NCBI GenBank assembly: GCA_037379345.1
Contig: CM074517.1
Coordinates: 5,580,001-5,644,000 of the forward strand
DNA: 64,000 nucleotides
Source: Perna viridis
Taxonomy: Eukaryota
Direction: 5' to 3'
Under the pieces are notes generated by a model, which saw only the letters and a list, made by a program, of their open reading frames with translations, was not told where the DNA came from and did no database searches. Shown piece after piece: positions 1 to 49,561 of this stretch; within the stretch, counting starts at the first letter, position 1; each line of letters starts with the position of its first letter. The translations under genes were made by a program, and so were the position numbers.

Positions 1-691
1 AGAAAAAAAGTGTCAAAAAATGGACTAAATTCTACCCTGAAAATACATTATGAATATCGGAGCTAAGTTTGCTTTCAAGACTAATTGCTCAATGAAATAT
101 TGTAGAATAATATCCATATTCCCTTGATTGATTCGAATTTGCCACTTAAGTTTCTACCATTCACTTCAAAAAGTTTTCTTCCTTCATCTGTCAAGTGACG
201 AACGACCTTGATTGACGATTGGTAATGTTGAATGGTGAAGAACGTCAAGTTTGATCTCATGCAAGTTTTTTTTACTTTAATAATACAACAAACAAAGTCA
301 TCTTAAGCGTTATTTACCTCATGGAAGGGTACAAAACTGAAATTACAAAGATTAACATTCATAAGCACACAAAACCTGCCTTCAAAATGACATTCGAATT
401 TAAAATGATCATAGCAGAAATGCTTAGCCATACTCATTAGCATGTGAACGATCTAAAAAAAAAAGCAATGACTGCAAATGTTATAGAGTGACAGTACAAC
501 TCAGTATATTTGATAAAACATATTGCCCCCACATCGCTTAGTATTTTTTGAGTTTATGAGTGTGTATTTTTGTTTTTATTAATAAGTAAATGCTATTTTT
601 TTCCAATGCGTTTTTGGCCTTTCTTTTTGTCGTAATTTTTATCTCATTTTAGACTGTGTTTTTCATTGATTTCACTTTCTTTTATTTGTAG

Positions 692-1734
692 GCAAAAGAG
701 ACTTATCCCCTGATGAATTGCAAGCAATATTACTGCAAGGGATTTTATCAGGAAAGGCTACAAAAGAAGTGTATATAAATCCAAGAGATTTTTATCCCCA
801 ACGGTTACTGATATTTATTGTTTATGTACAACCATTCATCAGCATTTTTTCCTTTATGTTGTTATGCTTATTGCATTATCTCCTCTGGGGAAAGAACTTT
901 TATCATAGATATGGTTTCATGTCGTTGTATTCAACTTTTGAGGTGACACTTCTTTTTTCAGAAAGCCTAATCAATGCAGTGATTTTTTTTGGCGGTAAAG
1001 ACTATATAGAGTTTCACTGGTGTTACCCTTACCTTGCTTTCACATTCACTGTGCCATCTGCTTTGTACTTCTGTTGTCAATGGTTACGAGTTGCCCAGGC
1101 AACGCAAAGAGTTTTAGTTGTGTACTTACCAATGACATATCAGCGGTATTTTAACAGGCAAAACGTTGTAATTGGGATTATATTTGTATTAATCGTTGCT
1201 TTCTCGGTGTCAACAGTCAGTATTTGGATTCTAAATCCCAAAGAGAGACTTATTATTGATACATTAAACAAAAAGATGGTTTCAGTTTGTATAGCAGACA
1301 TTGTACAAACGAATAACGATACGAATGTGATAAATGTGGCAATTTCCATTTTCATTATGATATCAAGTGATGCAATACCAATTGTATCAATGTCTGTTTT
1401 GTGTTTATTGTTGTCGAGAAAAATCAAAAAACAAAACCTGTTTAGACGACAATTCCAGACGAACAGAGAAAACCTTATTGAAAGAGACAGAATGATAATA
1501 GTCGTAACTATAACAACTTTTCTCGCGGTTATCGCCTCTATTCCCAGAATTATAGAACCTTTATTAGGAATCAATAGTGATGTATACTTTACGTCTGTTG
1601 ATTCACTGGAAGTTTTAGCTATTGTCGATAAAGCTATCAGAGTTGTATCTGTACCAACAACTTTTATTCTATTCGGGTCTTTGTCGGCAGAGTTTAGAAA
1701 TACTTGCAAGAAATTTATAGTATGTAATAAATAA
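692..1734 (+). CDS. Terminal coding exon of a divergent class A (rhodopsin-like) 7TM GPCR, sex-peptide/MIP-receptor-like (paralog A)
   Basis: Intact 338-aa ORF with seven hydrophobic segments, ECL1/TM3 'DYIEFHWCYPY', TM3 end 'QWLRVAQATQRVLVVYLP' (QR in place of DRY), ECL2 Cys, TM5 Pro, TM6 'ASIPR' and helix-8 'SAEFRNT'. The ORF track start is TTG. A polypyrimidine tract plus AG at 690-691 gives an in-frame phase-1 acceptor (GKRDLSPDELQ...), so the start codon is probably in an upstream exon. AATAAA motifs lie at and after the stop. Confidence 0.88.
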
Positions 1735-2563
1735 TAATAATAAAAAATTGCAGCGTAGGACAATATTTGTGCAAAAAACTTCTATATGAATGAACTTACA
1801 AAGGCCTTTGCAGATCATCTACGAAAAAATGAACACATATTTATGAGTCTGATTCGGCGACGATACGATCGATCCAATAATCGTCCGAACTAGACGTGAA
1901 AACGCCTCTAAGGCAGTTTAGAATTTTTATACGAATAAACATTTTTTACTTTTAATTTCAAATTTAAATTTAACTGATGACAACCATATTAAGAAGAAAC
2001 TCATTGTAGTAAATCGACAGCAACTCAATATAACACATTTCGTTATGCTGTTCACATCTATCATTTACCTACTATGTTCATGATCATCAGACATAATCCA
2101 GCACTGATAAGTTGTATTCAGCATGTCAAAAGAGCAACGCTACCTTGTTTAATATAAATAATGAAGTCTAAGTAAGTGTAACTGCAACTTTGGTAAATGT
2201 AATATGGTATACAATTCGAGTCAGACAAGTCCTACTGGCGGATAAGTCGTTATAAAACCTCATGAGACCTTATAATATGAAACACGACTATAAATACTAA
2301 TTACTTTTTACTTACGAAGCGATTCACACATGACATGGGCATTTGATTTAAGAATTGGACAGGAAAGAAAATTATCCGAAATACATTGTAGTAAAATCAA
2401 ATGTTCATATCAAAATTTACTGCAGTACATAGGACAAATTTTCACAAACTACTTGATATCATGAAATAAACATATCATAACAATAAATCATGCAAAAATC
2501 ATCTGACGTAGCATCACGACCTTACTTTAAGATTTCAAGGATAATGAGTAGTATCTCACTGTA

Positions 2564-2845
2564 TCATAGTTTTTCCTTCTTTCATCTTCCGTACACATTG
2601 GACGTGGCATTTTGTGAGTATTCCGGAGAGTGTTTCTGGAATAAAAAGCAGAAGGCGCTTTAACTAGGTCCAAGATTACAGTTTTTGTGGAATCCGGGTG
2701 ATGTTGTCTCGTTTACTTACTTTCGTTTGTATATACGTGCTATTTTGGCTATTTCATATCGTTTGTTTAGTCTCATTCTGATTAATCGTTAATTCCGGTT
2801 TATGTTCTTTTTGATTACCGATCGAATCCTGGTTCCTTTAATTTA
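2564..2845 (+). mobile_element. Old, diverged Naiad-type PLE 3' terminal repeat
   Basis: Colinear with 10030-10317: tcatagtttttcc...gtgtttctggaa..aagcagaaggcgctt..cagtttttgtggaatccg...ttcttttt gattaccg..cctggttcc. Confidence 0.7.
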
Positions 2846-2959
2846 TTTATATGACAGTCACTATACGATTAGGTATACCAATAAGAACAAACTGTACTCC
2901 TTTACTCACAGATCTGCTTCTCAAATGTTGTGAGGTGTAAGTCATAGCAGATTTAGTTA

Positions 2960-3040
2960 ACGAGTAATCAAGGGAACCAAGATTCTAGCCGAAATCAAAA
3001 GAATGTAATCCAGAGACAAAGACCAGACATGGAAAACATG
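2960..3040 (-). mobile_element. Naiad-type PLE extreme 3' end fragment
   Basis: gagtaatcaagggaaccaag...aaaagaatgtaatccagagacaaagaccagacatggaaaaca is the reverse complement of about 10239-10316. Confidence 0.85.
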
Positions 3041-3044
3041 GAGA

Positions 3045-3133
3045 ACTGCCAAATTTGCGAATTAAATTGTTGGTCATTCCCTCCGTAGGACTCGAACGCG
3101 TACCCCTGTGACATCTATGGCAACACCGCCCTT
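3045..3133 (-). repeat. Fragment of the tRNA-derived repeat also seen at 38911-39699
   Basis: actgccaaatttgcga...ttccctccgtaggactcgaac...tgtgacatctatggcaacaccgcc matches 39021-39100. B-box GTTCGAGTCC is on the minus strand. Confidence 0.8.
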
Positions 3134-3214
3134 TGACAGTAGATATATAATGAGCAACATTTTCAGTCAACAAATGACCTTCTTCAGTGCCTTAAATAAA
3201 CTGAGTGTGTATGA

Positions 3215-4722
3215 AACCTAACTGAAGATGAAACATTATTATTAGCTAAGGGTCTCAATTTCTGCCCAGTTCCCGGTCCTGTACACGAAACCATCCTGAC
3301 CGAGGAACTTGACAACTTCGCCAGGTGTTTGAGGATATAAGAGTACTTTAGCTCAAAAGAGAGTGAGGGACAAAATGAGAGTGATTCAGTAGATGAAAAT
3401 AACTATCGGTTTATAAAGAAAAGTGAGTGGGTCCCTAAAAAGAGCAAAAATTTAACTTTGGAATCATTTATTGATAATGTTAAATCTGACATAATAAGAA
3501 ATGTAAGGGTCAACATAGAGAGTCACGATAATTTAACAATAGGGGAACGTGCTGCAATTCAAGGTCTAAGGACCAATGACAATATCATAATAAAACCTGC
3601 AGACAAAGGCAGCGCTGTAGTGAGCATGAACAAATCCGCCTACATTAATGAGTCCAAGCGTCAACTTAAAGATGACCGGTTTTATATCAAATTAACAACA
3701 GACCCCACTCAATCCATTGCGGAAGAAATAAAAACTGAGTTAAACAGAATGTACGAAAATAACCACATTGGCGTTCAAACTCTTGAATATCTCAAACCTG
3801 AAAATTCTAAACCTCTGCTAATGGCCATCCAACAGAGAAAATTTCGGAATTTTTGGACTTTCATCTATGTTGAAAAGCTTCCATTATTTATAAAAGATAC
3901 GACTAATTACTAACAGAAGATTCAGGCTCTGAATCCCCTTCCACCAAACACCACTCTGGTCACTATGGACGTCACATCTCTCTATACCAACATTCCTCAC
4001 TCTGATGGTATCGAGGCTTGTAGAGAAGTATGGGACTCTCGGTAGGTCAAAGTTCCACCTACTGACTGCCTAGTCACTTTACTCATAATGGTTTTAAAAA
4101 AAGAACAATTTTACTTTTAATGGAGACCATTATTTACAAATAAATGGCTATGGGTACCAAAATGGCTCCGTCTTATGCCAATATTTTCATGGGAAAATTT
4201 GAAAAAGAACTACTTGAATCCTCCATAGAAAAGCCTCTGTCCTGGTATAGATTTGTTGACGACGTGGATATGAAGTTAACATATGACAAAGAAGAACTAA
4301 ACAATTTTATCGCACGTGCCAACAATCAACATCTTTCAATTAAGTTCAATCACGAAACATCTGCTACTAACATCTGATTTCTCGATACCTCCAGCACCTT
4401 ATGGGGGAGAGCTATCCACGGACCTATACTCCAAACCAACTGACACACATCAATATCTTATGCCTAAGAGCTGTCATCCATCGCACCTGACTAAGAGTAT
4501 ACTATTCAGTCAAGCTCTTAGGCTAAGGCGCATTTGTTCAAATGACGAATCCTTAAAAAAACGTTTAGGTCAACTGAAGAACAATTTAAGAAGAAGGGGA
4601 TATAGATACAAGACCATAAAAGAAGGTTTTAAAAAAATCATAATATCCCAAGAAGTAGTCTGTTACAGTACAAGGCAAAGAAAAAAGAACCCCTTGTGTT
4701 CTAACATACCACCCTGCGTTAT
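3215..4722 (+). mobile_element. Penelope-like retroelement (Neptune-type RT), frameshifted and 3'-truncated before the GIY-YIG domain
   Basis: Motifs across frames: [92 protein letters not shown]. Multiple stops and frameshifts. Confidence 0.9.
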
Positions 4723-4724
4723 AA

Positions 4725-4830
4725 AAAACGACAAACTAATGTCTCACCCCTATGTTCCATTTTTAGTAACGGCGGCCATGGTTTTCGAAGAATCATAAAT
4801 CCCTATTGATATATGCAGGATATCCCAACG
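4725..4830 (+). repeat. Helentron/HINE-like internal repeat unit, copy 1
   Basis: Similar to 5852-5960 (gtct.ac.cctatg.tc.atttttagtaa.ggcggccatg.ttttcga.gaatcataa.tcccta). Confidence 0.55.
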
Positions 4831-4845
4831 TATGTACCGAATGTA

Positions 4846-5851
4846 GTACTCTCTGTCAAAATAAAATTAATTTGACTCTATCGATATGAAAGGTTAGGGT
4901 ACCTGGTGAGGTTATAGGTCTTGGTCGTCTCAGGTTTAAAGATATCCGAAACACAAGATGAACAGATAAAAACATAAATTCCTTCTGACTAAATATAAAA
5001 AAGAGAGGTAACTGCTGCCTCGTATGAGTACATTGAACATTACAGAGGGAATTACATTATAAATGAACTCGTGAGCAAAATCATAATAATAATAATAAAT
5101 ACAGACAATTAATTCGTAAAACTGATTGGAAATATGCAGCAAATAGCTTACTGGAAACTTTGTTTAACTCAACAACTGAAAATAAATATTATGAAACAAT
5201 ACAATCAAGAAAATAAAAATAAACGTAAATATTTGCTGTTCCATGCTTAATCGGAGGGATAAGACAGATATTTATCGAAATAAACAAATGCAACTCATTT
5301 CGAAAGGTACCCATATTGAGTTTTGCTGGGATAGGAATATGAACACAATTATTCTTACATTGTACTCTCTGTAAAAACTAAACATAATTGACTCTATATA
5401 TATGGAAGGCTAGAGTACCTGATGAGGATGTACAGCCTTGGTCGTCTTGACCTAAATGATATCCGAAACACAAGATGAACAGATAAAAAGATAAGTCCCT
5501 ACTGACTAAATATAAAAATAGAGGTAACTGCTACCTCGTATGAGTACACTGAACATTACAAGAGAATAACATTATCAAAGAACTCGTGTGTAGAGAATAT
5601 TAATAATTACAAACAAACGATCAAACATTAAAACTGATTGGAAATATGCAGCAAATAGCTATCAGAAACTGAAAATAAATATAATGAAACGATATAATCA
5701 AGAAAATAAAAATAAACGTAAATATTTGCAGTTCCATGCTTAATCGGAGGGATAAGACAGGTATTTATCTAATTAAACAAATGCAACTCATTTCGAAAGG
5801 CATTGGTATTGAGTTTTGCTCGGAAAGGAATATGAACACGTTTATTCTTAC
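4846..5851 (+). repeat. Two-unit tandem repeat (period 516 bp), each unit starting with a hammerhead-ribozyme-like motif
   Basis: Units start at gtactctctgt (4846 and 5362) and end at tattcttaca. Similarity is high throughout. Each unit has CTG(A/G)TGA...GAAAC with flanking stems. Confidence 0.85.
5362..5474 (+). ncRNA. Candidate hammerhead ribozyme (second copy at 4842-4957)
   Basis: Stem I gtactct(5362-68)/agagtac(5412-18), core CTGATGA 5419-25, stem II ggatgt(5426-31)/atatcc(5459-64), GAAA 5465-68. Stem III is weak in this copy. Confidence 0.45.
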
Positions 5852-6030
5852 AACGAAAAACTACTGTCTGACACCTATGCTCTATTTTTAGTAATGGCGG
5901 CCATGTTTTTCGACGAATCATAACTCCCTAAATTACTTCTATACAGAATACCCCAAGGAACATTCAAACCAAGTTTCGTTTCAGTTGGTCAAGTAGTGTC
6001 AGAGGAGAAGAGTTTTGAAAAATTGTTTTT
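5852..6030 (+). repeat. Helentron/HINE-like internal repeat unit, copy 2
   Basis: ggcggccatgttttt...accaagtttc...cagaggagaagagtttt motif set, typical of molluscan non-autonomous Helitron-related repeats. Paralogous to 4725-4830. Confidence 0.55.
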
Positions 6031-8934
6031 TCGATATTTTGATAGTTATTTACAATAAATTCATGACCTGATATTTTTATTATTGTTTTGGGTCTAAATT
6101 TTGTGTTGAGAACTTAAAATAGGGAATTTCATTATGATGATGACTTATCAATACATATGATATTTTAATGTGCATAATTTACTAGTTTCAACAGATGGAC
6201 TCGAAACAAAATTTACTAATTGGGAGATATTGAATGTAGTTCTTGAATCTAGTTTGCGTTTAAGACTTTCTGAGATTTTCGGTATCCATTGCAGATGCTT
6301 TTGATTACAATATGGTGATTACGAAGCATGATCTGCTTAACAACGAAAAGATTTTAGTTTGAGGAATCTTTTTTTTTGAAAATTTATAAAAATAAAAAAA
6401 AAATGCCAATTTGATGAGGAATTCCATAAAAACCGAAAAATGTCAAGAACGTTATTTTAAATTTTTATACAGCTATAATGAAATATGCTGAAACCTTTAG
6501 TCAATGGATTGGGTAACATTGGCATGTAAGAAATAAATGTTGTGTCGGAAACCTAATATTTTTTATTTATAATTCCATGTTCATTGTAGAAGTTTCTGGA
6601 TTCTATGTTATCTGGTGGAGTACCTTAGTCTAGAACACATATCTTATAAAAGAGATATTCGTACAATCGCTTTATGCAATTTGAGAAAGACACCGGTATT
6701 GTAAAATTAGTGCTATTGTCTGGTTAACACGTTTTGGAATGTGTTTATTTTTTTAATTAGCGATCTGTAAGTCCTTTTCTTGCAAGATATCTTTTTGTGT
6801 TACAAAAGAGACAGGTGTGCAAGAAAGAATCGTTTATTTTAGACCTAACGACTGCGAAATAGAACTTCGTTATATTTATATATATTACAAACAACGGACA
6901 CTAAGAATTATATGCATAACAAAAACCGCATGTTCGACTTAATTAGAAGATCCACATAATATAAGCACGCAATTATTTTATAATTGAAAATGTTTTGTTA
7001 CAAAATGGGTTTGTCAGATGTCAGACAATTTCGTTCTGGTACAAGTGTAGGCAGCAGTGTCGGAATTTTATTTTCTGATAAACATCAGCAAGTTATCCTC
7101 GAAACTCGTTCTAGACACTGGTGGCACCCCTCTAAGAATATGCATGATTCTTGAAAGTCAGAGAAAAAGTGAATGATTTTATTCGAGATTATCCGATTGT
7201 CAAATGATGTATCTGGCCAGTACACCCCTTCTCTATGACATTATGTTTGCTTTACTCTGCTTCTTATCAATTGAATTTGAAATTCCTTTGTTGATCAGAT
7301 TTGCTAGGGTTTTGCTTGGTGTTGAGAGTGCTGTAATGCTTCTCCAATTGTTACAATTACCTACGTCTCCCCCTGTTGGTTGTCTGGTTATCTTTCGTTT
7401 ATTCCATTTGTTTTGTGTTTTGAGATATATGAGCTATATATTTTTAAAGATGTGTTGAAGGATACTTTATCATAATGGAGGGTCTGTTTTTAAATATCCC
7501 AATGCAGAAATGGTTTCATCAATATCTGGAGAGTTTTTATTAATGTCTTATTTAGTCCCTGGTCCTTGTAAGGCTTGTTTATTTGCAGGAGGAGGTCGCT
7601 CAATACCTCTTTAAACTGTTGTGTCCATCTTAATTCTTGTTCGTTTTACTTTTCTTCTTTCTTCATCAGACCGACAGAAGCATCAATGAAGACAGTGGAT
7701 GGAGATATAGTAGATCATAAAAAGGTTATAACTGATCAATAACGGATAAGAAATTACGGATTAAGTATACTCAAAATACAAAACAGTCAAAGATAGTAAG
7801 AGGTTCGCACTGATAAAAGCTATAAACGAGCGAAGAAGGACTTCGAACAGAAAACAACATCCTCAAATGAACATAGTTCTGATGTTCAGTAGCAAAATAG
7901 GTTGCCATTTGATGGAAAAGGAGATTAGTGCATCTAAATATTGCAATTTACTACCACTGCCGATACGTGTAAATGGTCAAACAAATACCGCCTAGATGGG
8001 AAGAATGTTAAGAAGAAAGGCGCTGTCATATTTTAATACCAGATCAGAGTCAATCGATTCAGATTAAGGTCTTTAATGTAATAAGTTAAATAATAAATAT
8101 GGGTGGTAGGATACTCTGTTTAGATTTTCAGTAGATGGTTACCTGGAGTCACCCGACAAATTCGTTGGAATAGTGGTGGCTGGTGCATGCTGACAAAAGA
8201 GCTACCAACATTCAAAATGAAGATGCTGTTCAGTATATACGTTGGACAATTAGCAATCAAAAGGTTATAAAGGGGATAAGAAAATTAGATATCAAAAGAC
8301 TGACATTTGAGGAAACAAAAACTCCATTTATCCATTTAGAAATGTTAATGTCAGAGCAGTGGGTAAAGAGAATGATAAACGGAGTTGATTATAGAAAGAT
8401 GATTTAAAAAGTACAAGGGGAAATAGGCTGAGACCAATATAATAGCAAATAAAATATCAGTTTTTTTTTAAATAAGTGTTAACAAGGAAAAATGGTGGCA
8501 ATTTCTTCTTTCAGAGACATGGCCTATAGCCCTGAAAGGTCTACTTTCTGTTGTAACAGAGATGGACATTTTGCAAGGAGTTTTAACAATGCTTTGTAAA
8601 CTCAGTAGTTACGAATATGAGTTGATCTCCAAGTCCTTTAAACTCTATGTGGTCTTGACTTATTCAGCAAAATTTGGAAAACACTTGGAAAATTCACGCA
8701 GTAGAAAACCAACCGAACAAACTGTCTACATATGCTATTTTAACCTGAAAACAGACCAGACACACTGTTGGCTAGTAATGCTGTTTTATCCTTAGTTGGG
8801 AATCTTAATAAGCTCACATCTGGTATGGATTGTTCCCCGACAATTCCAACAGGGTGTACCCAATTGCATGTTCAGTCTGCTGACCATATATTCCATTAAC
8901 CATGTTCCATCACTTTAAATGATATATTCAATAT

Positions 8935-10317
8935 ACGATGATTGTGATTTACCGTCTATGTACTGGATTTCTAAACTCCACAAGAATCTATACAAAGAAC
9001 GTTTCATAGCTGGATCTGCAAAATGTACCGCCAAACCTCTTTCAAAAATTTTAACTGCTATACTCACAACTGTCAAAGAGGGTCTGCAGTCCTACCACAA
9101 CACTTGTTACTCCCGTAGTGGTATCAATTCAATGTGGATTCTGAAAAAGATCTTTTGGAGACAATCAGTTTAAGACTATTATCTAAATATAATAGCATTA
9201 AAACTTATGATTTTTCAAAACTGTATACTTCCATTCCCCATACTCAGTTAAAATCCCGACTTAAAAACATTATACATCGTTGTTTTTCCAAAAAGATGGT
9301 ACGCCTAGATACAAATATATAGTTCTTGGTAGAGATTCCTCATACTTTGTAAGAAATAATTCCAAATAATCTTCCAAATATACAGAAGATGTTTACAAAA
9401 TGCTGGAATTTTTAATCGACAACATATTTGTCCAGTGTGGTGGACGTGTTTTTCAACAAACGGTCTGCATTCCAATGGGAACAAATTGTGCTCCTTTACT
9501 TGCGACCTATTCCTTCACTCTTATGAGACTGACTTTATAGTTGATCTGATGAGAAAGAAAGAATATCGTTTGGCTAGATCTTTCAATCTCAGTTTTTGCT
9601 ATATAGATGACGTATTATCTTTAAACAATCTTAATTTCGGGGATTTGATACATCGCATCTACCCAAAAGAACTTGAGATAAAAGATACTACAGACACTGT
9701 GAAGTCAGCCTCATATCTTGACCTACACTTAGAAATCGATGGTAAAGGAAAATTATTGACCAAACTTTACGAAAAACGTGATGACTTTTCATTCAGAATT
9801 GTCAACTTTCCTTTCATCTGTGGCAACATCTCTTCGGCACCTGCGTATGGAGTGTTCATATCACAACTCATACGTTATGCCAGAGCTTGCCGAAACTACG
9901 CAGATTTTTTGTATCGCGCTAGAACTGTAACAAATCGGCTTCTGGAACAGGATTATGTTGCTACAAGACTGAAGTCATCACTACAGAAGTTTCATAGTCG
10001 TCATCATGAACTTGTGGATCGTTATGGGTCATAGTTTTCCTTTCTTCCTCGTTTGTCTACCCCGGACTTGACTTTTTATGAGCAACTCGACCGGTGTTTC
10101 TAGAAAAGCAGAGGACGCTTATCCTACCGATGCACCTGGTCCATGCTCCCAGTTTTTAGTGGAGTCCGAGTTGCTCATTTGCTTTTGTTACTTTGTATGT
10201 ATGATTTTAGTTACTTTATGTTCTTTGTTGTGTATGTCTGTTTTCCATGTTTGGTCTTTGTCCCTGGATTACATTCTTTTGATTACCGCTATAACCTTGG
10301 TTCCCTTGATTACTCTT
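8935..10317 (+). mobile_element. Naiad-type PLE: RT domain plus 3' terminal repeat (pseudo-LTR), degenerate
   Basis: LPSMYWISKLHKN..ERFIAGSAKCTAKPLS, KTYDFSKLYTSIPH, IPMGTNCAP, YIDDVLSLNN, IYPKELEIKDTT, ASYLDLHL, IVNFPF..NISSAPAYGVFISQLIRYARAC. The RT ends the protein with no C-terminal endonuclease. The terminal repeat spans 10030-10317. Confidence 0.9.
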
Positions 10318-10329
10318 TGACGACAACGA

Positions 10330-11450
10330 TGACGAACCACATTGTACATATCAAAATATGGAATTAAAATTTGCAAAATATGCAACATTCCAATAACCGA
10401 CTTCTTTTCCACTTGTACCCTTACGAACAAAAGCTTTAAAACAAGAAGTCACGATGACTTAAGTTGTAAATCGACGAACTTAATTTACCCATTAGAATGG
10501 AACTTATGCGGTTATGCGAATGTGCGGTTATTGTTCGTACGGAAAGAGAGGAAAGCTGGATACGCAAAATAAGTACTGCATTAACTGACGGGTGCAGTGA
10601 AAACATCAAAAGTATAAGAAACCTTTCAAGCCAATATTACACTAACATAAATGTAATGAATTTATTTGACAAAAATCCAAGACGGATAAGGAGTCATGGC
10701 CATTGCCACTATACGTCACCTAAGATGCATGATGTCTCCATAGATGGTCTTCTTTTCATACACTCTTGAACTTAACTATATTCTATACCTCCCACTTTAC
10801 TACACTACCTTTAAAAACAAGTCTTGACACTCCTGTTTCAGAACCTACCTTATTATTATACGGATGTCTTGAAATCATTTTGAAATTGGTTTCCACAGAT
10901 GACTCTTTAAACTAGTTTGAGCAAAAGGTCAAGCTGAAGAAAAACGATCATTTCTTCAACTACCGTTTGTCAACAAAGGTATAGATGCAATTAATTTGGT
11001 TAACATCCTCCTTCAAAAAAACTAAACCAACAAAATTCCCCATATTTTAAGGACAAATCAATACCAATTATTTCATATTCATATACTTCACATTTGCATC
11101 CAAAGAATTTCAATTAGCTTAAGGTTATTGTTGAACCTCGATATTGAGTTTTGCAAGGCTAAACCACCTGACTGTTCTTTCCGGTCACATCGTTTTAGGA
11201 GTTTTACGCATCATCGAAAAGGAACTTCTCCGTAAATTCCTTTCTAAAGGTCCAAAATACCGTAAACCACGCTTCAATTGGAATTATAACTTTGAAGCTC
11301 TGACGAATACTGTGGAGGACTACGCAAGAAATTGGATAAAACGAAAACAAGATTCTCTGTCAGACTGGGTAAAGACGTACGGTCTTTAATTTTGAAACGT
11401 ATGAAAATTTTAAGTAGGTCAATGTGCGTGAATGCTACATCAGTTTTCAA
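10330..11450 (+). mobile_element. Naiad-type PLE 5' part: N-terminal GIY-YIG endonuclease and linker, degenerate
   Basis: CKIC...LSCKSTNLIY.LE.NLCG (GIY-YIG start with Cys motifs), RTEREESWIRKISTA..DGCSE (GIY-YIG C-terminal E/W/G motif) and LSKGPKYRKPR. Positions 10950-11450 match 13560-13015 on the minus strand. Confidence 0.8.
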
Positions 11451-11451
11451 A

Positions 11452-13565
11452 GAAAAACAAAGAAAATAAAATAACTAAAATAACACATACAAAGAACCAA
11501 AAGTAAATGAGCAACTCGGACGCCACTATAACCTGGGGGCAGGGACCATGTTCACCGGTAGGATAAGCGTCCTCTGTTTTGCAAGAAACATCCATCGAGT
11601 AGCTCATAAAAAGACAAGTCCGGGCTAAACGAAAGGAAAAAGGAAAACAATTACACATTGAACAAACCAATTTTCATGGTGCAGATGGATACACCACAAT
11701 GATCCACGAGTTCATGATGACGACTAATGAACATTTGTACTGATGACTTCAATCTTGTAGCAACATAACTCTGTTGCAGACCCCTAATTGTAAGAAGTCT
11801 AGCGTGGTACAAAAAGTCTGTGTGCTTGCGGCAAGCCTTGTCATAACGTATACTTTGTGATATAAAAATTCCATACGCAAGTGCTGAAGGGACAAATGGA
11901 GATGAAAGAAAAGTTGACAGTACGGAATAAAAAAATCATCACGTGTGTCGTATAGTTTGGCCAATAAATTTTCTTTACGATCAATCTCTAAGTGTAGGTC
12001 AAGATATGAGGCTGACTTTACAGTGTCTGCAGTATCCTTTATCTCAAGTTCTTTGGGGGTAGATGCGATGTATCAAATCCCAGAAATTAGGATTGTTTAA
12101 AGATAATACGTCATCTATATAGCGAAAACTGAGATTGAAGGACCTAGCTAAACGATGTTCTTTCTTTCGGATTAGATCAGCTATAAAATCAGCCTCATAA
12201 GAGTGAAAGAATAGGTCAGCAAGTAGAGGAGCTCAATTTGTTCCCATTGGAATGCAGACCGTATGTTGAAAAACGCGTCCACCACACTGGACAAATATGT
12301 TGTCGATTAAAACTCCAGCATTTTGTAAACATCTTCTGTATATTTGGAAGATGATTTGGAATTATTTCTCACAAAGTATGAGGAATCTCTACCAAGAACT
12401 ATATATTTGTATCTAGGCGTACCATCGTTTTGGAAAAACAACGATGTATAATGTTTTTTAACTCGGGATTTTAACTGAGCATGGGGAATAGAAGTATACA
12501 GTGTTGAAAAAGCATAGGTTTTGATGCTACTATATTCTGATAATAGTCTTGAACTGATTGTCTCCAAAAGATCTATTGAATTTCTTTAGGATCCACATTG
12601 AATTAATACCACTACGGGAGTAACAAGTGTTATGGTAGGACTGCAGACCCTCTTTGACAGTCGTGAGTATAGAAGTTAAGAAGTTTTGAAAGAGGTTTTG
12701 TGGTACATTTTGCAGATCCAGCTATGTAACGTTGTATGTATGAATTCTTGTGGAGTTTAGGAACCCAGTACATAGACGGTAAATCACAATCATCGTCTTT
12801 GGTAGAGAGACCAATAGAGGTTAGCACCATTTCTTCTTTGGAGAGTGTGGTAGCAGTATTGGTTTTATCACTGCTATTACTTTCTACGTCTACCTCTGAT
12901 AATAGATATTGTATGCAAAACGTTGTGCGAACGAAAGAATGTTTTTTGGGCTTTGTCTGCTGGTACGACAGCATATTATCATGTATAGTAGACTATGTTT
13001 TTGCTACATTGGGGTCTTTGAAAACTGATGTAGCATTGGCACTCATTGACGTACTTAAAACTTTCATTCGTTTCAGAATTAAAGACCTCACGGCCTTTAA
13101 CCACTCTGACAGAGAATCAATGTCTTCTTGTTCTCGTTTTATCCATTTTCTTCGGTATTCCTCCACGGCATCCATAAGAACTTTAAAGTTATAATTCCAA
13201 TTTATGGAGCGTGGTTCACGGTACTTGGGACCTTTAGAAAGGATATTATGCAGAGATTCGTTTTTGATGATGGACAAATCTCCCGTAACGACGTGACAGG
13301 AAGGACCATATTTGAATTGAGAGTTTTTGCAAGAACAGTCATGTGGTTTAGCCTTGAAGTCCTCAATTTCGAGGTTCTGCAATGGCCTTTTTTAATTGAA
13401 AATGTTGGATGCAATGGGTGAAGTATAGGAATATGAAATAATTGGTATGGATTTGTCTTTGAAATATGGGCGAATGTTGTTGGTAACGTTTTTGTGATGG
13501 AGGGTGTTTTTATTAATTAATCGTATCTATACCTTTGTTGACAAACGGTAGTGGAAGAAGGTCTT
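11452..13565 (-). mobile_element. Inverted Naiad-type PLE copy: CxC linker, RT and terminal repeat
   Basis: KPHDCSCKNS..CHVVTGDL (CxC linker), LSKGPKYREPRSINW, LPSMYWVPKLHKN..QRYIAGSAKCTTKPLS, KTYAFSTLYTSIPH. Terminal repeat at about 11452-11660. Reverse complement of 8935-10240 and 10950-11450. Confidence 0.9.
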
Positions 13566-18205: not shown

Positions 18206-19924
18206 TTCTCTGAAGTCTTTCCGGTTTATTAATGAGTTGAGTATCGTCCGCGAACATGTTTAATTTGGCTTCAATGCCATACCCCGCCCTCGACCGAAGG
18301 TGTATTCCCTGAACATTAGGATTCCCCTTAATTACTGCCGCAAATGGTCCAGCTTGTAAGATGTATAACATCTGTCTGATAGGGCACTCTGATGTATAGA
18401 ACGGGATATCCCTATTTATTTCGAAACAGGCCATTAATCTGAATGCACGTCTTCTCATTTTCGAATAGCATAGAAACCCATCACCTAAATTTTTGCCCAA
18501 TTTTGTTTTGCATACATAATTCTATCCACTCCCATTCAACTCTATTGAAAGTTTTTTTGTTGATGTAGAAATATAATCTCTTAATCACCCATCTCTGCAT
18601 AATCTATAATATCTTGAAGCAGTATATTACCATGAGAGATATTATACACCTTACCGAACTCCTCTTGATAAGTATCTATGATCCTAGGTAATACATGTTT
18701 AACCTTCTGCCATCCACTTCAAAATAATTAATAATTTTATAGTCTCTACTTTAAAGTGTAATTGGACGGCCAGTTTGTAATATCCTCAATTTCCCCTAGG
18801 TTTGAACATAAGTGTAATTACTCTTTTATATTGTATGTCACACAATGAATTTGTATCTAGAATCTCATTAACCACACTACAAAAATCTTCTCCTCTAAGA
18901 TACCAATAAAGTTTATAAAACTCTCTTACTGTCCCATCCTCTTCTCTGGTTTATTTAAAAAAAACAATAAATTAAAATGGCGTCTATACTCTCTCTGTAA
19001 TCCCCATTTGCTGTCTGTACATTGTTCAGAGTTTTTCGCATTCCCTCCTTTTTTTCTAAATTAAAACAAAATATTTAGTGGGTTTCTCCCCATTCTAATA
19101 CAATATACCGAGGATATTGTAATAGCTGCATCCGATTTTTTCTTCTATTTTTGAAGTATTTATCTTATCATTGTAGTCAGGTTTATTTTCGTCCTTTTTT
19201 AATCTCTGTTCCATTGTTTAACTACTTTTTTTTTTTAGATATGTTCAATTTTTTAGAGACTTCAATAGAAAGATGTCGTCGATTTTAGGCATATATATTC
19301 GATCTAGTTCTTCATTGAACGTATAGTTAAAATCGCCAAGTAAAGCGTTTTTCCCCAACATTTACTCGGATTTCGTCAATAACAAATATCTGTAGTGTAC
19401 ATATATGTTAGGAGCATCTATGTTAAAAATATATAGACATGGTTCATTAACCGTTTTAACTCGACATGAAACAATCCTTCCAAGAGTGTCACACATATTT
19501 GTTCGATGTCATGGTTAAATTTATCAGAAAAAATACCCAAACCGTTAGATTTACTAGTTTCATGACACCACAAACTGTCCATGTACTTTTTACCTCATTT
19601 GAACTACGCGTTTCTTGACTGCATATATTCTCGGTTATGTTCTGTTTACACTAATTGAAAATTGCATCGTGCTGTTTATACCATACCATTCAGATTTAAT
19701 GTTATAAAGGAGATCGTGATATAAGTACAATCATTACAATAAATAGGCACATGTTAACCATTCAGACAACAACAATATACCATAATTTAATAGGGGAACA
19801 TTTGTCGTATTTTTTTCTATGACAAACAGTCTATGACAGGCAGGTGCTCGCGTCTGTTACGCGTACAATAGCCAATCGCAACATGCAAAGTAAAAGTAGT
19901 CCAGTAACATTCAGCTATTCCTAA

Positions 19925-20348
19925 TACTTTGTGAAAAATAAATCCAAATAATCATCTAAATATACCGATGAAGTTTTCCTAATGCTAGAAATTTGATGGA
20001 CAACATATTTGTCCGGTGTAGTGGACGCGTTTTTCAACAAACTGTCAACATTCCAGTGGAACAAATTGTACTCCGCTACTTGCTTGCTGACATATTCCTT
20101 CACTCTTAAGATGCTGACTTTATGGCTGATCTGATCCCAAAAGAAAGAACATCGTTTTATCTAGATCCTTTAATCCAAGTTTCCGTTACATAGATGACGC
20201 ATTTTCTTTTAACAATCGTAGTTTCGGGGATTTGATACATCGCATTTTAGGTCAATAATAACGGAAAACTATTGACAAAAGAATACGACAAGCGTGAACA
20301 CTTTCCATTCAGTATTGTCAACTTTCTTCTCATCTGTGACAACATCCC
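19925..20348 (+). mobile_element. Naiad RT fragment nested in the L1 element
   Basis: Colinear with 9343-9830 (atactttgtgaaaaataaatccaaataatc...gacaacatatttgtcc.gtgt.gtggacg...tcatctgtgacaacatc) with deletions. Confidence 0.85.
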
Positions 20349-20532
20349 TGCGATTCTCATATGGTACTTTTGGCTTAAAAACATATGACAATCATATGTT
20401 TGTGAAAAACATATGATTATCATATGATAATCATGCGATAATTATATGTATACCGAAACATATGATTATCATATGGTGATCGATTTATATGATAATCATA
20501 TGATGCAAACCATTTGATTCTCATGTGTGGCA
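20345..20532. repeat. Palindromic CATATG/GATTATC array, possibly a subterminal-repeat fragment of an EnSpm/CACTA-like MITE
   Basis: Repeated catatgattatcatatgataatcat in both orientations, beginning near ccctg. Confidence 0.5.
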
Positions 20533-23409: not shown

Positions 23410-24488
23410 GACCTGGACTAGATGATTCACTAACTGTTGAATTGAGTAAGATGCTATTTGATTTGATGGCAAAAAAGAAGAACGAACGTGCATTGCTTGT
23501 CAACCCTCGTAATGTGTTCTCTCCAGAGTATTTGTCATTTATCATATATGGTCAAACCGTTTTAAGCGTGGTTTCCATTATTATATTAGTGTTTTTGCAT
23601 TACTTGCTCTGGGAGCCAAATTTTTTTAAAGTGTATGGCCTAATGTCATTGTATACATCAATGGACCTGATTAATCTTACCATAGAAAGCTGTCTTAATG
23701 CTGCAATATACTTCCGCGGGAAGGAATATATAGAATTTGATTGGTGTTACCCTTATTTAACCGTTCAAATTGCAGTTCCTTTGTGTTTGTGTTTCTGTAG
23801 CCAATGGTTAAAGGTTGCACATGCGGCGCAAAGGATGGTGATTGTTTACTTCCCTATGACATATACGCGTTATTTTGACAAAAGGAACATAGTCATTCTG
23901 ATGTGTTGTGTTATAATGCTAGCACTGACGATAGCTGGTGTACATATTTGGAAATTGTCTATACAAAAAGTCACTATTCCAGACAAGGAAGAACTGGAAT
24001 TTGTTGACGTTTGTATATTTGGACATAAAAGGATGAAAGATAGACGTCTTCGTGGGGATACCGATGTTCTTGCAACAACTGTTATTGCTCTTATACTAAG
24101 CGAAGTATTGCCACTGTTTATTATGTCAGTTTTGTGTGTAATGATGATCAAAAAGATCCGAAAACAGAATTTGTTTAGACGCCAATTCTTGAAATCTGGA
24201 GAAGCCCTTGACAATACAGACAAGTTGCTTGTTATATTAACTTTAACCACATTATTCACTGTTGTTTCCTCAGTTCCAAGAACTGTAGATTACATGATTT
24301 CAATCGCCACCGAATTGGGCGTTACTACAGCAGATAAGCGTAGTATCATTCAGATGATTGACAGAGTTTTACGTAACTTTTCTTCATTTGTTATATTCAT
24401 ACTGTATGGAAAACTATCAGGAAAAGTCCTGCAGACTTTAAGACAAATATTTAATTGGGGGAAAGCTAGCAGTTTTGGTACCAATTAA
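23410..24488 (+). CDS. Terminal coding exon of a divergent class A 7TM GPCR, sex-peptide/MIP-receptor-like (paralog B)
   Basis: Intact 348-aa ORF, colinear with paralog A (NPR, LHYLLW, MSLY, GKEYIEFDWCYPYL, QWLKVAHAAQRM, PMTY.RYF, KIRKQNLFRRQF, SSVPR). In-frame phase-1 acceptor ttcttattaccAG at 23408-09. An internal ATG at 23451 is an alternative start. Confidence 0.88.
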
Positions 24489-34560: not shown

Positions 34561-34865
34561 CGTCAATTAAAAAGGCAACTGATACACTATCATCTAACCA
34601 AATCTAGAATCTGAATTTTACATTGTTCATATAGTACATTTAAAATCGAAAGTTTATAATAACCATGGTGAATCGTGCTGTTAACCTCCCCTTTCTCACT
34701 GACAATAAACTAAAAACGTTGTCAGTGTATTGGGAATACATATCATAGCTGTCGTGCATGCGATTTGTACACTGACTTTCTTAGTAAAGCGAGGATAATG
34801 TGGAAAAAAAACATTATAAGACACGGGCATATCTAGGCTTGATTGATACCATTACAGCATAAATT

Positions 34866-35531
34866 ACTACAGACACTGTGAAGTCATCCTCATATCTTGA
34901 CTTGCACTTAGAAATCGATGGTAAAGAGAAACTATTGACCAAATTTTACGACAAACGTGATGAGTATTCATTTAAAATTGTCATTTTCCTTTCATCTGTG
35001 GCAACATCCCTTCAGCACCTGCGTATGGAGTGTTCATATCACAACTCATACGTTATGCCAAAGGTTGCCGAGACTACAGCAGACTTTTTGTATCGCGCTA
35101 GAATTCTAACAAATAGGCTTCTGGAGCAGTGTTATGTTGCTACAAGATTGAAATCATCACTACAAAAGTTTCATGGTCATCATCATGATCTCATGGATCG
35201 TTATGGTATATCCATCTGCGCCATGAAAACTGATTGGTTCAACGTGTCATAGTTTTCCTTTCCTCTTTCGTCTACCCTGGACTTGACTTTTTATGAGCAA
35301 CCCGGCGGGTGTTTCTAGAAAAGCAGAGGACGCTTACCCTACCGGTGCACCTGGTCCATGCTCCCAGTTTTTAGTGGAGTCCGAGTTGCTCATTTGCTTT
35401 TGTTACTTTGTATGTATGATTATAGTTACTCTATGTTCTTTGTTGTGTATGTCTGTTTTCCATATCTGGTCTTTGTCCCTGGATTACATTCTTTTGATTA
35501 CCGCTATAACCTTGGTTCCCATGATTACTCT
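34866..35531 (+). mobile_element. 5'-truncated Naiad-type PLE (RT C-terminus plus complete terminal repeat)
   Basis: SSYLDLHLEIDGKEKLLTKFYDKRD...KFHGHHHDLMDRYGISICAMKTDWFNVS*. Terminal repeat near-identical to 10030-10317. Confidence 0.92.
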
Positions 35532-37504
35532 TTCATCATATTGTCCATGTTGTATTTGCATGAATCGTTTCTTTATTCCGCAAACACTTTTTAACAATGG
35601 CGTTGGGTTCTGATGTCTCTTTATTGCCCTGTTGTTTTGATGCTTGTAAATGTTTCTTTTTCTTCATTAAAGTTTCTTTTTCGACGACGAATGAATTATG
35701 TTCATGTTTTGGAAATAATTTTGCAATGGTCAGTTATAACACCTTAATTGACGTATTGCCGACATGAAATGTTTTTGTTATCGATTTGCATCTTCGTCCA
35801 TGAAGGGATAATTGGTAAGTATTTATTTAAAAGGTCAAATGTTTTCTGAGTGATTTTCAGACTTTTAATGTAAAGCTGGGAAAACGTACTTTTTAAGAAC
35901 ATATGATTGTAAAAATTTGAGGTCAACTTAAACATCAGGCTATGTGATAGTACGTACATCAATACGAATAACTCGTACGAAAAAAAAAGAAAATGTGTGA
36001 ATAATAAATGCGCTTAATTTTGTACAATAAAACTTGATTTTTTGACTTGATTCACGTATAAATGCTTGATAAATGCATTCAAGTCATCAGAAGTGTGTAC
36101 AAGTAGTATTTTAACCCTGTATAGATTAGACTGGTTATAAAGTAAGCTATGTTTCTGTTTTACATTGTTTACATTGACTATTTATTGATTTGTTTCCCTT
36201 GTGTTAATTTTACTTTTGCAGTATGTTCTTCTCATTCAGCAAGAGTTTTACCTCACTTAATTGGCTATCTTATATAATTTCGGGCTCTTTAAATTTGAAC
36301 TTTATTTTCATGCTCCCTTGATTGTAACTATGTATAGAAGTGATTTTGCGTGCTCATAATGTATAGATAGTGTATGACATGTACTTTATGAAGTACATTA
36401 TATAAGTTAAACGTGATGATTTTCAATTTTCTTGATTACATATCGTGCACAAAATGTAATTTTCTTTAGAATTCTAAATTTAGTAGCATTTTTTATATAA
36501 CTGTGTGGGTGTTCAAAGATATTCGAATATGTAGTTTTACCTTTGGGAAAGATTGAACGGAACTACTAGCTTTTGTTTGCCACTAATTGTCGCAAGTAAA
36601 ACAGGATCTAGAGCAGATTTTTTTCAAAGCAGAAAGAACCGCTTATAAATCATTTTTATGAAACAGCAAAAATATATATATATAGTAATAAACAGGAAAG
36701 GAAAGAAAACGATTGGAAATTTAATATTCTCATACAAATTGACTCTTCTCAAAACCATGTTTTTTTTTCAGTCGCCCCTTTTTTCTGACCAGGAAGCGAA
36801 ACAGTAAACCATCTCCATCATTAATCTAACCGATATGAAAAGGGAAATTATATAATATTTGTTTGTAATTCTCCCCATAGAACAATATTCAAAGGTACAA
36901 TTAATGAAATGCACGAATGTGCGTAAGTTTGATGCATTAAAAAGTGTTAAAGCAATGAAATAAGGAAATGCCATATTAACAACATGAGATTATTTCTCTT
37001 TTTATTACATACAATGGGCAATTTAGATTTAATAAATACTAGTAATTAAGACCCATTCGCCTAGTTTATGGTTCTATTAGAGTCGAATTGGAACATTTCA
37101 AAGAAAATATTGATAGTAATAGTATCGAATTCACATTAATCTAAAACTTAATTGTCGTGAATGTATTTCTAAATCCAAGTAATATCTGAAAATGAATTTA
37201 ATTTATTTGAAAGCTGTCTCTGCCTTTTTTACTAATTTTATTTGTTTTGCTCGGTCGATGTTGTCAGTTGAATCAGGCACAAATTATTTTTGATTCTCAT
37301 TGATCTGATCAGCTGTTATTTCAAAATAAACAGAAATAAGGCCTAAAAGGCCACTACATGTACATGTAGATTCAACTGGATTTAAATTCGTTCGGTATGT
37401 AAATATAAGAAGAACTGAATTAATTTACAAGTGAGAAAAAACTTTAACCCTAATCTTTTAAATAGATTCAAATAAAGGATCTATAAATGAGTAGATTTTC
37501 ACCA

Positions 37505-37700: not shown

Positions 37701-38910
37701 GAATGGTTTGTTTATCCTATGAGTATTTTTGGTATTGCATTGGGAATTTTTACACGGTTATGGAAGTGCAAGAGTAGCATGAAATCCAACCTCAATTGGT
37801 TTGTCCCATTCATCAAATCAGATAATTGTGTTTCATAACAGATGCTTCTACCAAACCTGTTATTATCCAAATGAACAGCACAATCGCCATTCATCATAGT
37901 GAGCTCTATTACCTTTATGATAAATCTAGTGCAAAAAGGTACGCAAAGGTTTATAAAAATAATCAATTTTAAATCTTCTTTGGTTAAAAGTGCACTTAGC
38001 CAACAATGCCTTACACTCTATATATTAAATGTCCTATCTCATTGTGGCCAGTTAAGTAAATGTTCTTGCATATTTTTGGCTTGTACGAATGAACGAAACC
38101 TGGGTGTTTTAATTGTTAAATCTGTAAAAGGAAAAGCCAAGCAGTTGAAAAGACTGCTGAGAATTAGATAACTTTTTTGCAATGCAAATGGTTTCCGTTA
38201 CATGTCTGCTGTTTTTGTATGACCTCTTCGACCTTATCTATGAAAAATCTGATAATTGATCTACTTACTACTGGTCATGGTTAATATCCGGTGTCGCTGC
38301 AACTCAGCCAATTACATGCCGGAAATGAAAAGTTTTGCGACAGTCGAATCAAATACCGGCATATGATGATAGGAAAATAGAAAACGTGGATATATAACAA
38401 AGAAACGGAAATTAGTGTTAACTGACTGAAGTCGGACGATCAACAAAACATGAGGTCCAATCAACGATGATTTCCGCTTCAGTGTAGAATGGTCTGCTGC
38501 TTGAACATACGACAAACACTTTATACAAAAGAAAGGGAAATTTGGTCATGTGTACGTATTTTGCTAGAATACCTGTCATGTAAAAATGAATTTATATATC
38601 ATTATTTAGATGTAGCTGATCTAACTGGCCCAATATCAATTATATAGCCTATAGGCTTTACACGATTTTTTTTCTGATGTTATTCGAAACTCACTTTAGA
38701 CAGCTGTCTTCGATATTGCAAATTATATTTTGCGATATTACAGAGGAGGTGACTGACTGGTCTATTTGTAACGGTAAGAAATGGAGGACACGAACGTATG
38801 TGAAGCTTTACCGTTAACAAATCAAATATACTTTTTATTGTGTAATCATGATATTGTATTTCTATTACAAGTGTAGATCTCATACATATATATATAAATA
38901 TATATACAAG

Positions 38911-39699
38911 CGTCTCAGAATGTAACGACTATTCGCTACACTGCTCCATGGGATCAAATTTATACAGGGAAGATAACGTAAACTTATAGAAGAGTCTGAA
39001 AAATTCCCAACGATGTTAGAACTGTCAAATTTGCGATGCAAATTTTTTGTCGTTCCCTCCGCGGGACTCGAACCGTTGTGACATCTATGGCAAAACCGCC
39101 TGCACTATGTCCAGCGCCCTAGACCACTCGACCAGCTAGGCTATGTAAAAATATAGCTTTCGCTGACCGGGTCATTCCTCCTCGTAGGATTAATCTAGGG
39201 CTCTAACTCAGTACACGATGTAAGGTAGTATGGGACAGTTTATCTAGATGTTATTATGTAGGATAGAGGATCAAATTAATGATGCATGTCACAACAAATC
39301 AATATTATAAAACGTCTCAGAATGTGACGACTCTATTCGCTACACTGCTCCATCGGATCAAATTTATACAGGGAAGATAACGTAAACTTATAGAAGAGTC
39401 TGAAAAATTCCCAACGATGTTAGAACTGTCAAATTTGCGATGCAAATTTTTTGTCGTTCCCTCCGCGGGACTCGAACCGTTGTGACATCTATGGCAAAAC
39501 CGCCTGCACTATGTCCAGCGCCCTAGACCACTCGACCAGCTAGGCTATGTAAAAATATAGCTTTCGCTGACCGGGTCATTCCTCCTCGTAGGATTAATCT
39601 AGGGCTCTAACTTAGTACACGATGTATGGTAGTACGGGACAGTTTATCTAGGTGTTATTATGTAGGATAGAGGATCAAATTAAAGATGCATGTCACAAC
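38911..39699 (-). mobile_element. Tandem dimer (period 402-404 bp) of a tRNA-derived element next to a (TA)n tract
   Basis: 38911-39295 and 39313-39699 are nearly identical. (TA)n tracts at about 38886-38906 and 39907-39921. Confidence 0.85.
39054..39142 (-). pseudogene. tRNA-Leu-like Pol III head (second copy 39458-39546); not a canonical tRNA
   Basis: Minus strand shows A-box/D-arm TGGTCGAGTGGTCTAGGGCGCTGGA and B-box GGTTCGAGTCC. The acceptor and anticodon stems do not pair. Confidence 0.7.
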
Positions 39700-43888: not shown

Positions 43889-44410
43889 GGAGCCCCGTGC
43901 AGGTCCCGGTGTTAAAGAATAGGTCTGCAGCAGCGCTGTCGTAAAAGGCGACTAAATAGTGCTCAGGAACCTAGCCAAGGGCTAGGCGCTCTGCCCACAG
44001 AGTAACTGGGATGTTTGCCCCAGGTGGTGGAATGAGATACCCCTGGCGTGTTACATGCTGGGGTTGTCAGGCTATAATACGGAAAACCTGACCGCAAACC
44101 ATAGTGGTGCACCGTGTTGGGAAAGATGCCACGTTCCTCGCACGTTAAAGAACCCTGCTGTGGTATTCGATAGGAGTAGGAACCTTTGCGCTCCACCACA
44201 GGAGGCTAAATTGCCCGACCTTACCCATCCTTCCCTTTTTATAGTGGCAATCAAAATATTTCGACCCTATAACCCTTGTGTCCCATCCTTTTTTTCATTT
44301 CATCATCATTCATGTTCATTTTATCATCCATTTCACGTTCATTGTCTGAAAATAGCTGAAATATTGCTGCTCGGACGTTAAACTCCAACAATCAATCAAT
44401 CAATCAATCA
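43889..44410 (+). mobile_element. SINE-like retroposon with (CAAT)n tail and structured non-tRNA 5' end
   Basis: GC-rich 520 bp. Body contains gcacgttaaagaaccc (Meta-domain-like, from memory). 3' end atagctgaaatattgct..cgttaaac..(caat)n. Imperfect 10-bp TSD caattacaga (43879-88) and caactacgga (44409-18). Confidence 0.8.
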
Positions 44411-44867
44411 ACTACGGATGATTAGAAATTGTTATATTCTGAGTATATCAACTGTTATAAAAGTTTTAAGAAACTGATAATACATCATCTCAACCAGAGC
44501 AGCAATTATTTTAAACACTCTTCATTTGGTTTATTTCTGTTTACATATGAAACGTAAGTCAACGTGCAACTGATACATCGTAGACTTCAGAAGATTGTAC
44601 TAAGATTTAAAACTGTATCACTTGTCAATCAGGTTCTCACTAAATACAGCATTTACTGACGCAAGTGTTTTAATGGTGTGAATTTATTTTTTCTTAATGT
44701 CCGAAAAACTTCCTTATTTCCCCTCGGTCTATTTTCAAGTATTTTAAAGTAATTTGTCTGAGACTATGTTTTATGGTTCCTTACGGAAGTAAATCTCGAA
44801 TTATGTAGAAGCAGTGAAAAGATTAAGTTTCTTTAGTTACCAATTTGAAAACTTTTTATGTGATTAA

Positions 44868-45144
44868 AAGAGTAATCAACGGAAGAAAGATTCGGGCGGC
44901 ATTCAAAAGAGTGTATTCCAGAAAAAGACACTACCCTGGAAAAATAGACAGAACAAAGAACATAAAATAAGCTAAATAACACGTACAAAGAAACTAAAGT
45001 AATTGAGCAACCAGAACTCCATAAAAACGTACCGCATGGACCAGTACCCCGGGAGGGTGTCACCTGTGTTTTCTAGAAAAAATCCGCCGAGTCATAAGAT
45101 ATAACGCCCAGTGAAGACAAAAGCGTAAAGAAAAACTTTGACAC
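44868..45144 (-). mobile_element. Diverged solo Naiad-type terminal repeat
   Basis: aagagtaatcaa...aaaagagtgtattccag...tgagcaacc..actcca.aaaaac..gcatggaccag...ttttctagaaa..ccgccgagt...gaaaaactttgacac. Confidence 0.75.
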
Positions 45145-46256: not shown

Positions 46257-46380
46257 CCTTTTCACAAAAAATCGTAAGAGTAAAATTAGTCGTAAGTGGT
46301 GAAGCCACAACTCTACTTAACTCTATTATGACATCATAACTAACGACTAATTTTACACTTAAGATTTTTTTGTGAAAAGG
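46257..46380. mobile_element. 124-bp foldback MITE
   Basis: About 41-bp inverted arms: ccttttcacaaaaaatcgtaagagtaaaattagtcgtaagt and actaacgactaattttacacttaagatttttttgtgaaaagg. Confidence 0.85.
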
Positions 46381-49543: not shown

Positions 49544-49561
49544 TGAAGAGCTTATGATGAC

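Follow-up and report, generated by a model that had tools for sequence, protein, structure and literature searches.

In the available text of the reports, the hammerheads of animal retrozymes and of Penelope repeats are type I or minimal motifs (PMC7229834, PMC4209133, bioRxiv 10.64898/2026.07.22.740005). Type III motifs are known in animals but are few: they are described, in the portions of these papers at hand, for mammalian Clec2 (PMC6155905) and for termite, Drosophila pseudoobscura and other dipteran genomes and the HDV-like circles of toad and termite (PMC7936874), as well as for a snail kolmiovirus (bioRxiv 10.64898/2026.09.02.748743). As far as these texts extend, the literature assigns type III to plant LTR retrozymes and type I to the retrozymes and Penelope repeats of animals. 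Since retrozyme screens used type I descriptors, according to the accessible part of one preprint (bioRxiv 10.64898/2026.07.22.740005), they would overlook a type III family. Within the literature covered, chiefly open-access main texts, no repeat family of this type was found for a mollusc genome.

The closest described systems are the metazoan non-LTR retrozymes (Cervera and de la Pena 2020, PMC7229834; Li, Clavereau and Pollet 2026 preprint), which include a 350-390 bp Mytilus repeat. As portrayed in the available portions of these sources they are, like the element described here, non-coding and low in G+C, and consist of units joined head to tail, every one bearing a hammerhead; the presence of Penelope elements in the genome that harbors them and possibly a long target duplication are further points of likeness. 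They carry a type I motif in every unit and have thousands of copies and abundant circles, whereas the present element has a type III motif, a stem III destroyed at the tandem joint, a representation of tens of contigs and a near absence of RNA. Ribozyme type and joint set it apart from the described animal retrozymes. Plant LTR retrozymes (as summarized in the accessible parts of PMC7229834 and the 2026 preprint) are also type III and non-coding, with two motifs some 500-700 nt apart. They possess LTRs, a PBS, a PPT, 4-bp duplications and a G+C content above 55%, in contrast to the repeated whole units and 31% G+C found here.

The two units were located at positions 4846-5361 and 5362-5852 on the forward strand of the 64-kb stretch of DNA that was analyzed (the window). 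Unit 1 extends from its predicted scissile bond to the unit 3' end plus two joint bases, and the first base of unit 2 again lies at the predicted scissile bond. The units are arranged head to tail and were aligned by BLAST base 1 to base 1 (4846 with 5362) with 82% likeness over 516 columns, in agreement with the first-pass annotation, which had placed the onset of similarity at the scissile bond. The unit length of 516 nt given there is correct for unit 1, while unit 2 comprises about 491 nt. G+C is 33% in the whole window and 31% in the units, in which no long open reading frame was identified, the longest stop-to-stop frame touching them being 75 aa. The element is thus recorded as non-coding, low in G+C and dimeric. 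A monomer made of the unit and the left flank (635 nt) was disfavored, since another copy departs from the alignment at 5855 with 331 nt remaining. A 6-bp hairpin was seen in the unit body at 5521-5537 in the unit 2 fold and, by eye and by way of a G-U pair, at 5005-5021 in unit 1.

The dimer is flanked by pieces of one very high-copy repeat. The left piece (4727-4830) is duplicated at 5852-5956 within the longer right piece (5852-6027), which was delimited by contig depth and loose ends. The pieces 4727-4828 and 5852-5956 begin at the same base and show a likeness of 87% in their first 79 nt, and both carry a T (4796 and 5921) where the majority of the repeat has an A. This duplication of about 105 bp may be a long target duplication; it lies inside a high-copy repeat, where other origins are possible. 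The flanking repeat shows enormous contig and RNA depth; a microsatellite in its loose ends, considered together with the literature (PMC7492417), suggests that it may be of Helentron type. Its RNA is strongly one-stranded (about 16-23 to 1), with a depth of up to about 6,000 summed over genomic copies.

Hammerhead motifs were identified at the start of both units, at 4846-4961 (copy 1) and 5362-5478 (copy 2) on the forward strand, and both are predicted to be inactive. Copy 2 consists of stem I (5362-5368 with 5412-5418), an exact CTGATGA core (5419-5425), stem II (5426-5431 with 5459-5464) and GAAA (5465-5468); the 3' strand of stem III is present and its 5' strand is missing, which leaves one base pair. 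In copy 1, stem I (4846-4852 with 4896-4902) includes one G-U pair, the core (4903-4909) reads CTGGTGA with A6 changed to G, and stem II (4910-4915 with 4942-4947) is followed by GAAA (4948-4951) and by a stem III 3' strand running to 4961 that forms a weak helix of 3 bp. The motif is preceded on the same strand by a leader (4834-4845), probably the decayed 5' strand of stem III, whose last bases are TGTA (4842-4845) and thus provide a GUA cleavage triplet. Stems, core boxes, GAAA and TGTA are all situated where the first-pass annotation had put them; as a correction, stem II of copy 1 contains a T-T mismatch, which leaves five of six pairs. No type I reading emerged from the 200 nt scanned after GAAA, the best being a 4-bp stem I with a 1-bp stem III, and type I and dimeric minimal hammerhead readings were rejected for lack of a partner strand. 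The type III topology with long loops was retained, as had been proposed, and a fuller stem III was found in another family copy (below). The suspicion that the copy 2 junction has no good stem III was likewise confirmed, and the further suggestion that both copies are dead appears probable, copy 1 being disabled by its core change and copy 2 by the missing stem III.

Based on the window sequence alone, the case for a hammerhead is suggestive, not strong. A descriptor of 7-bp stem I, core, stem II and GAAA, which was fitted after the matches had been seen and to two copies that are not independent, had the two known sites as its sole matches on both strands of the 64 kb. Shuffled sequences were matched in three of 60 cases with the exact core, in 20 of 60 with one core change, and in none of 60 with one change plus a 3-bp stem III. 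Neither copy is found by the plain CTGANGA..GAAA pattern, which has 18 matches in the window, five of them within one tandem array. Folding energy was without signal in four stretches (z = +1.29, -0.22, +1.29 and -0.95), and in the whole-unit ensemble the probabilities of stem I and stem II were at most 0.01 and 0.14, respectively. Typical type III motifs have much shorter loops. The Rfam hammerhead models, which the first-pass annotation had recommended as a check, gave no match at E values of up to 5 for positions 1-12000 or up to 10 for either motif, and the viral and prokaryote sequence collections gave none. A metagenome match to a 21-nt motif (two loci, both in one bacterial gene that looks, we presume, like a heavy-metal P-type ATPase) was discarded as due to chance.

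The family was investigated using contigs aligned to 5325-5515, of which 67, 48, 60 and 4 were obtained from four public runs belonging to four studies. Over half of them are less than 95% alike to this stretch, and from these contigs the family is judged to be small and old. Variants with a share of at least 8% were listed, giving 15 rows at 14 positions. Within 5391-5471 the core and stems vary at one of 33 positions and the loops at 12 of 48 (Fisher p = 0.012, position 5475 being excluded from the count); the excess conservation of the core over the flanking loops, another of the proposed checks, was accordingly observed. At every core position copy 2 carries the base of the family majority, from which it differs at six positions in 5391-5479, or about 7%.

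A second family copy, present as two contigs of one run (X4), shows the leader TCACCGGGTGTA before its stem I strand (30-letter consensus, agreement 0.92), a sequence that matches the leader of copy 1 at eight of 12 positions. With the core setting the register, eight of 11 positions of this leader pair with the copy 2 strand after GAAA, or nine of 11 given the majority G at 5475, which accounts for 53-58% of the depth in three runs and may sit on contigs other than those bearing the leader. The predicted stem III comprises four pairs, a 2x2 purine loop and five pairs, and is accompanied by a GUA triplet. Nine Watson-Crick pairs were reached by eight of the 63,988 12-mers of the window (about 1 in 8,000), and by 198 if G-U pairs were allowed. 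The pairing of leader and strand offers the strongest support for a true type III ribozyme, yet it is thin, coming from two contigs of one run. The family motif is very probably a true type III hammerhead. A candidate subfamily (runs X10 and X4, with loose ends before 5391) seems to have a loop I about 14 nt shorter, along with an intact stem I and predicted pseudoknot strand.

If the hammerhead look were accidental, the units would belong to the flanking, presumably Helentron-type, repeat, either as its central repeats or as DNA that it captured, and would have been duplicated at the DNA level. The pieces of one very high-copy repeat on both sides agree with such an origin, as do the lack of an Rfam match and of a folding signal and the 20 of 60 shuffles matched with one core change. 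Helentron-type elements of oyster, in the available part of one report, carry unrelated central tandem repeats (PMC7492417). Such an accident would have produced both core boxes and all of the three stems in their proper order, a leader in another copy that pairs at nine of 11 positions, a core that varies less than its loops, and, in two species, joints that coincide with the scissile bond; we regard it as quite improbable.

A pseudoknot of 6 bp between loop I and loop II is predicted in copy 2, with modest support, from 5406-5411 and 5434-5439 (within 5406-5439, forward strand). Its equivalent in copy 1 (4890-4895 with 4917-4922) is preserved by three G-U pairs, and this pairing is the sole one of 640 registers common to both copies; a loop-loop run of 6 bp is also produced by 15% of loop shuffles. 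The loop II strand holds four of the 14 variable positions of the family, of which three stay paired as G-U and one breaks the pair. Extended type III hammerheads (the available text of PMC7936874; snail kolmiovirus) resemble the present motif in being animal type III ribozymes with a 6-bp helix II, an enlarged loop I with an extra hairpin, and a Watson-Crick pairing of loop I with loop II on a GGC/GCC core, the pairing being predicted in our case. They have GCCR in loop I and YGGC in loop II, so the polarity is reversed here, and the present motif is set apart from them by a helix I of 7 bp and a loop II of 26-27 nt. The termite type III motifs are described in the accessible portion of that paper as isolated (PMC7936874), whereas the present one heads a repeat unit. 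HDV-like and kolmiovirus genomes are highly self-complementary and encode a delta antigen; here no rod fold (z = -0.07 for unit 2) and no frame above 75 aa was found. The resemblance to the type III ribozymes of invertebrate HDV-like circles is of interest as an origin from host transcriptomes has been proposed for those, in the same available text (PMC7936874). Loop II (5440-5452) may form a small hairpin, which is completed by the family-majority A at 5444. Loop I of copy 1 (4856-4877) may likewise form a 6-bp hairpin with GTCA/TGAC arms like those of the loop II hairpin, and cross-pairing is possible.

The joint between the units (5357-5368, forward strand) leads from the unit 3' end to the scissile site. 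It is crossed with no differences by a contig of another public run spanning 5325-5429, and an assembly error is therefore ruled out. A like joint was identified in a paralogous copy of a second species, in which one contig (depth 2.6) reads from the unit end through a run of A directly into the stem I strand. It has nine differences in 60 nt and five bases after TTCTT, as at the present locus, and different filler bases. The two joints could stem from one old event. Among the loose contig ends listed, the unit end of other family copies is followed in tandem by a second ~90-nt terminal block or by unlike sequence, and one contig of 786 nt holds two hammerhead pieces in tandem, with a joint of 5472 to 5363 and the intervening letters unread. 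Six of the 28 listed contig pieces begin at 5362-5364; these starts were discounted as a sign of cleavage, since any copy that does not have the unit-end joint must start there.

The 3' terminal block of ~90 nt (5764-5852, and 5271-5359 in unit 1, forward strand) is a tandem sub-repeat in other copies, based on joints of 5346/5359 to 5764 and on loose contig ends behind 5359, and its contig depth is above that of the unit body. The block ends in a small hairpin at 5826-5849 in unit 2 and 5332-5357 in unit 1 (folding z = -1.3 and -2.3, respectively), which is a candidate start signal for reverse transcriptase (RT). The idea that the two ends are brought together by base pairing between the 3' terminus of the unit and the stem III strand was rejected, as 9.5% of 9,141 window 17-mers bind equally.

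The feature is real, and would function like a retrozyme or like an R2-style parasite trimmed at its 5' end. In the former case, our main rival explanation, the family would be a tandem type III retrozyme with a leader-ended monomer reaching from cut site to cut site and with RNA circles, and the locus a deleted or recombined remnant. The tandem hammerhead pieces of the 786-nt contig are in keeping with this, tandem low-GC units with long target duplications are a described form of such elements (PMC7229834, available text), and described family consensus lengths reach 972 bp (bioRxiv 10.64898/2026.07.22.740005, available text). Two species, however, show the unit end joined to the scissile site with no leader, and other copies pass from the unit end into the 90-nt sub-repeat or unlike sequence. 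Unit 2, moreover, is not self-paired (z = -0.07). In two of three available raw RNA runs, of which 19% and 24% were scanned, the depth over the units was 0-7 and mostly at most 2, with thousands over the right flank; no back-joint and no pile-up of ends was detected over the units in these portions, in which library selection might have lost circles. The family is apparently silent. The classical retrozyme circle envisaged by the first-pass annotation is thus not sustained, given that no complete ribozyme is restored where one unit meets the next and that RNA cover is close to nil, and a tandem circular retrozyme is considered unlikely.

The reading that we favor, with somewhat more belief than doubt, is a non-autonomous retroelement whose RNA is cut at the 5' end by a type III hammerhead and which has become dimeric through a template jump. 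A precursor with the 12-nt leader would fold stems I to III, probably braced by the loop I/loop II pseudoknot, and would cut itself after GUA. RT would begin at the 3' hairpin end and copy up to the cut 5' end, add a few bases and jump to the 3' end of a second template, creating the joint 5361/5362 and a unit with no stem III. If the second template was uncut, copy 1 would have retained its leader; the core change in copy 1 fits with an uncut RNA and proves little at such an age. The dimer would then have been inserted into the high-copy repeat, perhaps with the ~105-bp duplication, and decayed by roughly 7% since. The joint of unit end to scissile site in the second species makes this a recurring joint and thereby supports the template-jump reading. 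The proposal does not account for the persistence of the leader through rounds of copying, which speaks against it. The element is probably inactive at present.

Each step has precedent in R2, for which a 5'-trimming ribozyme, untemplated additions and template jumps are known (PMC3774820, available text). In R2 and its non-autonomous derivatives an HDV-like ribozyme at the extreme 5' tip sets the RNA 5' end, and untemplated bases and template jumps occur at 5' joints, as the same portion describes. The present element differs in its ribozyme class, in having no rDNA target and no ORF, and in losing a stem III strand on cutting. A Penelope-type enzyme is the likely source of RT, because such elements fill the window and are tied to animal retrozymes; the accessible part of one preprint links the type I retrozymes of animals to them (bioRxiv 10.64898/2026.07.22.740005). 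For Penelope itself, hammerhead cleavage is dispensable in vitro, and no reads ending at the cut site are reported in the available portion of that study (PMC11167929). Tentatively, and with more reserve than for the reading itself, the family might represent an undescribed class of animal non-autonomous retroelements, in which a pseudoknotted type III hammerhead would trim the element's own 5' end in the manner of R2 and disarm itself, and tandem copies would arise by RT jumps at the cut end with no RNA circles. If so, the joints would be a genomic record of hammerhead-cut RNA serving as a retrotransposition template in vivo. Because the joints of several copies are anchored at the scissile bond, a role of cleavage in Penelope-driven copying becomes testable from the genome alone; the significance is limited by a family that is small, old and apparently silent.

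A degenerate Neptune-like Penelope RT (3131-4726, forward strand) lies upstream, cut before the endonuclease. Its thumb region is identical by eye at 26 of 45 positions to Neptune1_Ap, the only row with the KPTD motif in the available part of the supplement of PMC8557442. A search of Pfam with five fragments yielded a single weak RT match, and no endonuclease was identified after the RT stop at ~4726. The possibility that the units are a pseudo-LTR or UTR of this element was considered: it is on the same strand 120 bp away, hammerheads are known in Penelope pseudo-LTRs, Neptune included (PMC4209133, available text), and an RT jump from unit RNA onto Neptune RNA in a single insertion event is possible. 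Most of the ~120 bases in between, however, derive from an unrelated very high-copy repeat. Summed contig depth, a rough guide, is ~1,000-2,200 and ~44,000-59,000 on the RT in runs X1 and X2 and 21-200 and 143-5,232, respectively, in the bins from 4842 to 5753, the RT being covered about ten times deeper than the units. The pseudo-LTR hammerheads described in the accessible texts (PMC4209133, PMC11167929) resemble the present case in a likely RT source and in partial tandem insertions; they are type I or minimal and stand beside an ORF start, neither of which applies to the type III motif found here. As judged by its truncation, its depth and the foreign repeat in between, the Neptune-like RT is a truncated neighbor and the units are not its LTR, and we regard such a link as quite improbable. 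Of the neighborhood described in the first-pass annotation, the same-strand RT ~120 bp upstream was found again, and a structural link to Neptune was not upheld.

RT fragments of another Penelope-type family, which we take to be Naiad-like, were identified at 8935-12796, 19917-20352 and 34865-35533. The fragments 8935-10229 and 11456-12796 form an inverted pair, 85% alike, and many shorter end pieces occur across the window. A link to the "half core" motifs of Naiad was rejected, as the two Mytilus Naiads are not so flagged in the available part of the source (PMC8557442); two 12-nt motifs gave no match in the portion of its supplement at hand, the line breaks of which could hide one. Three further tandem repeats were observed: a 404-nt dimer at 38894-39699 (97%), an array of eight 52-nt copies at 49562-49978 (96%), and a long degenerate array of 51-53-nt units at 62269-63994, which hold five chance-like CTGAGGA..GAAA matches. 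A stop-to-stop frame of 354 aa at 670-1734 has by eye the look of a seven-helix membrane receptor, and a stretch 68% alike to it is located at 23572-23880.
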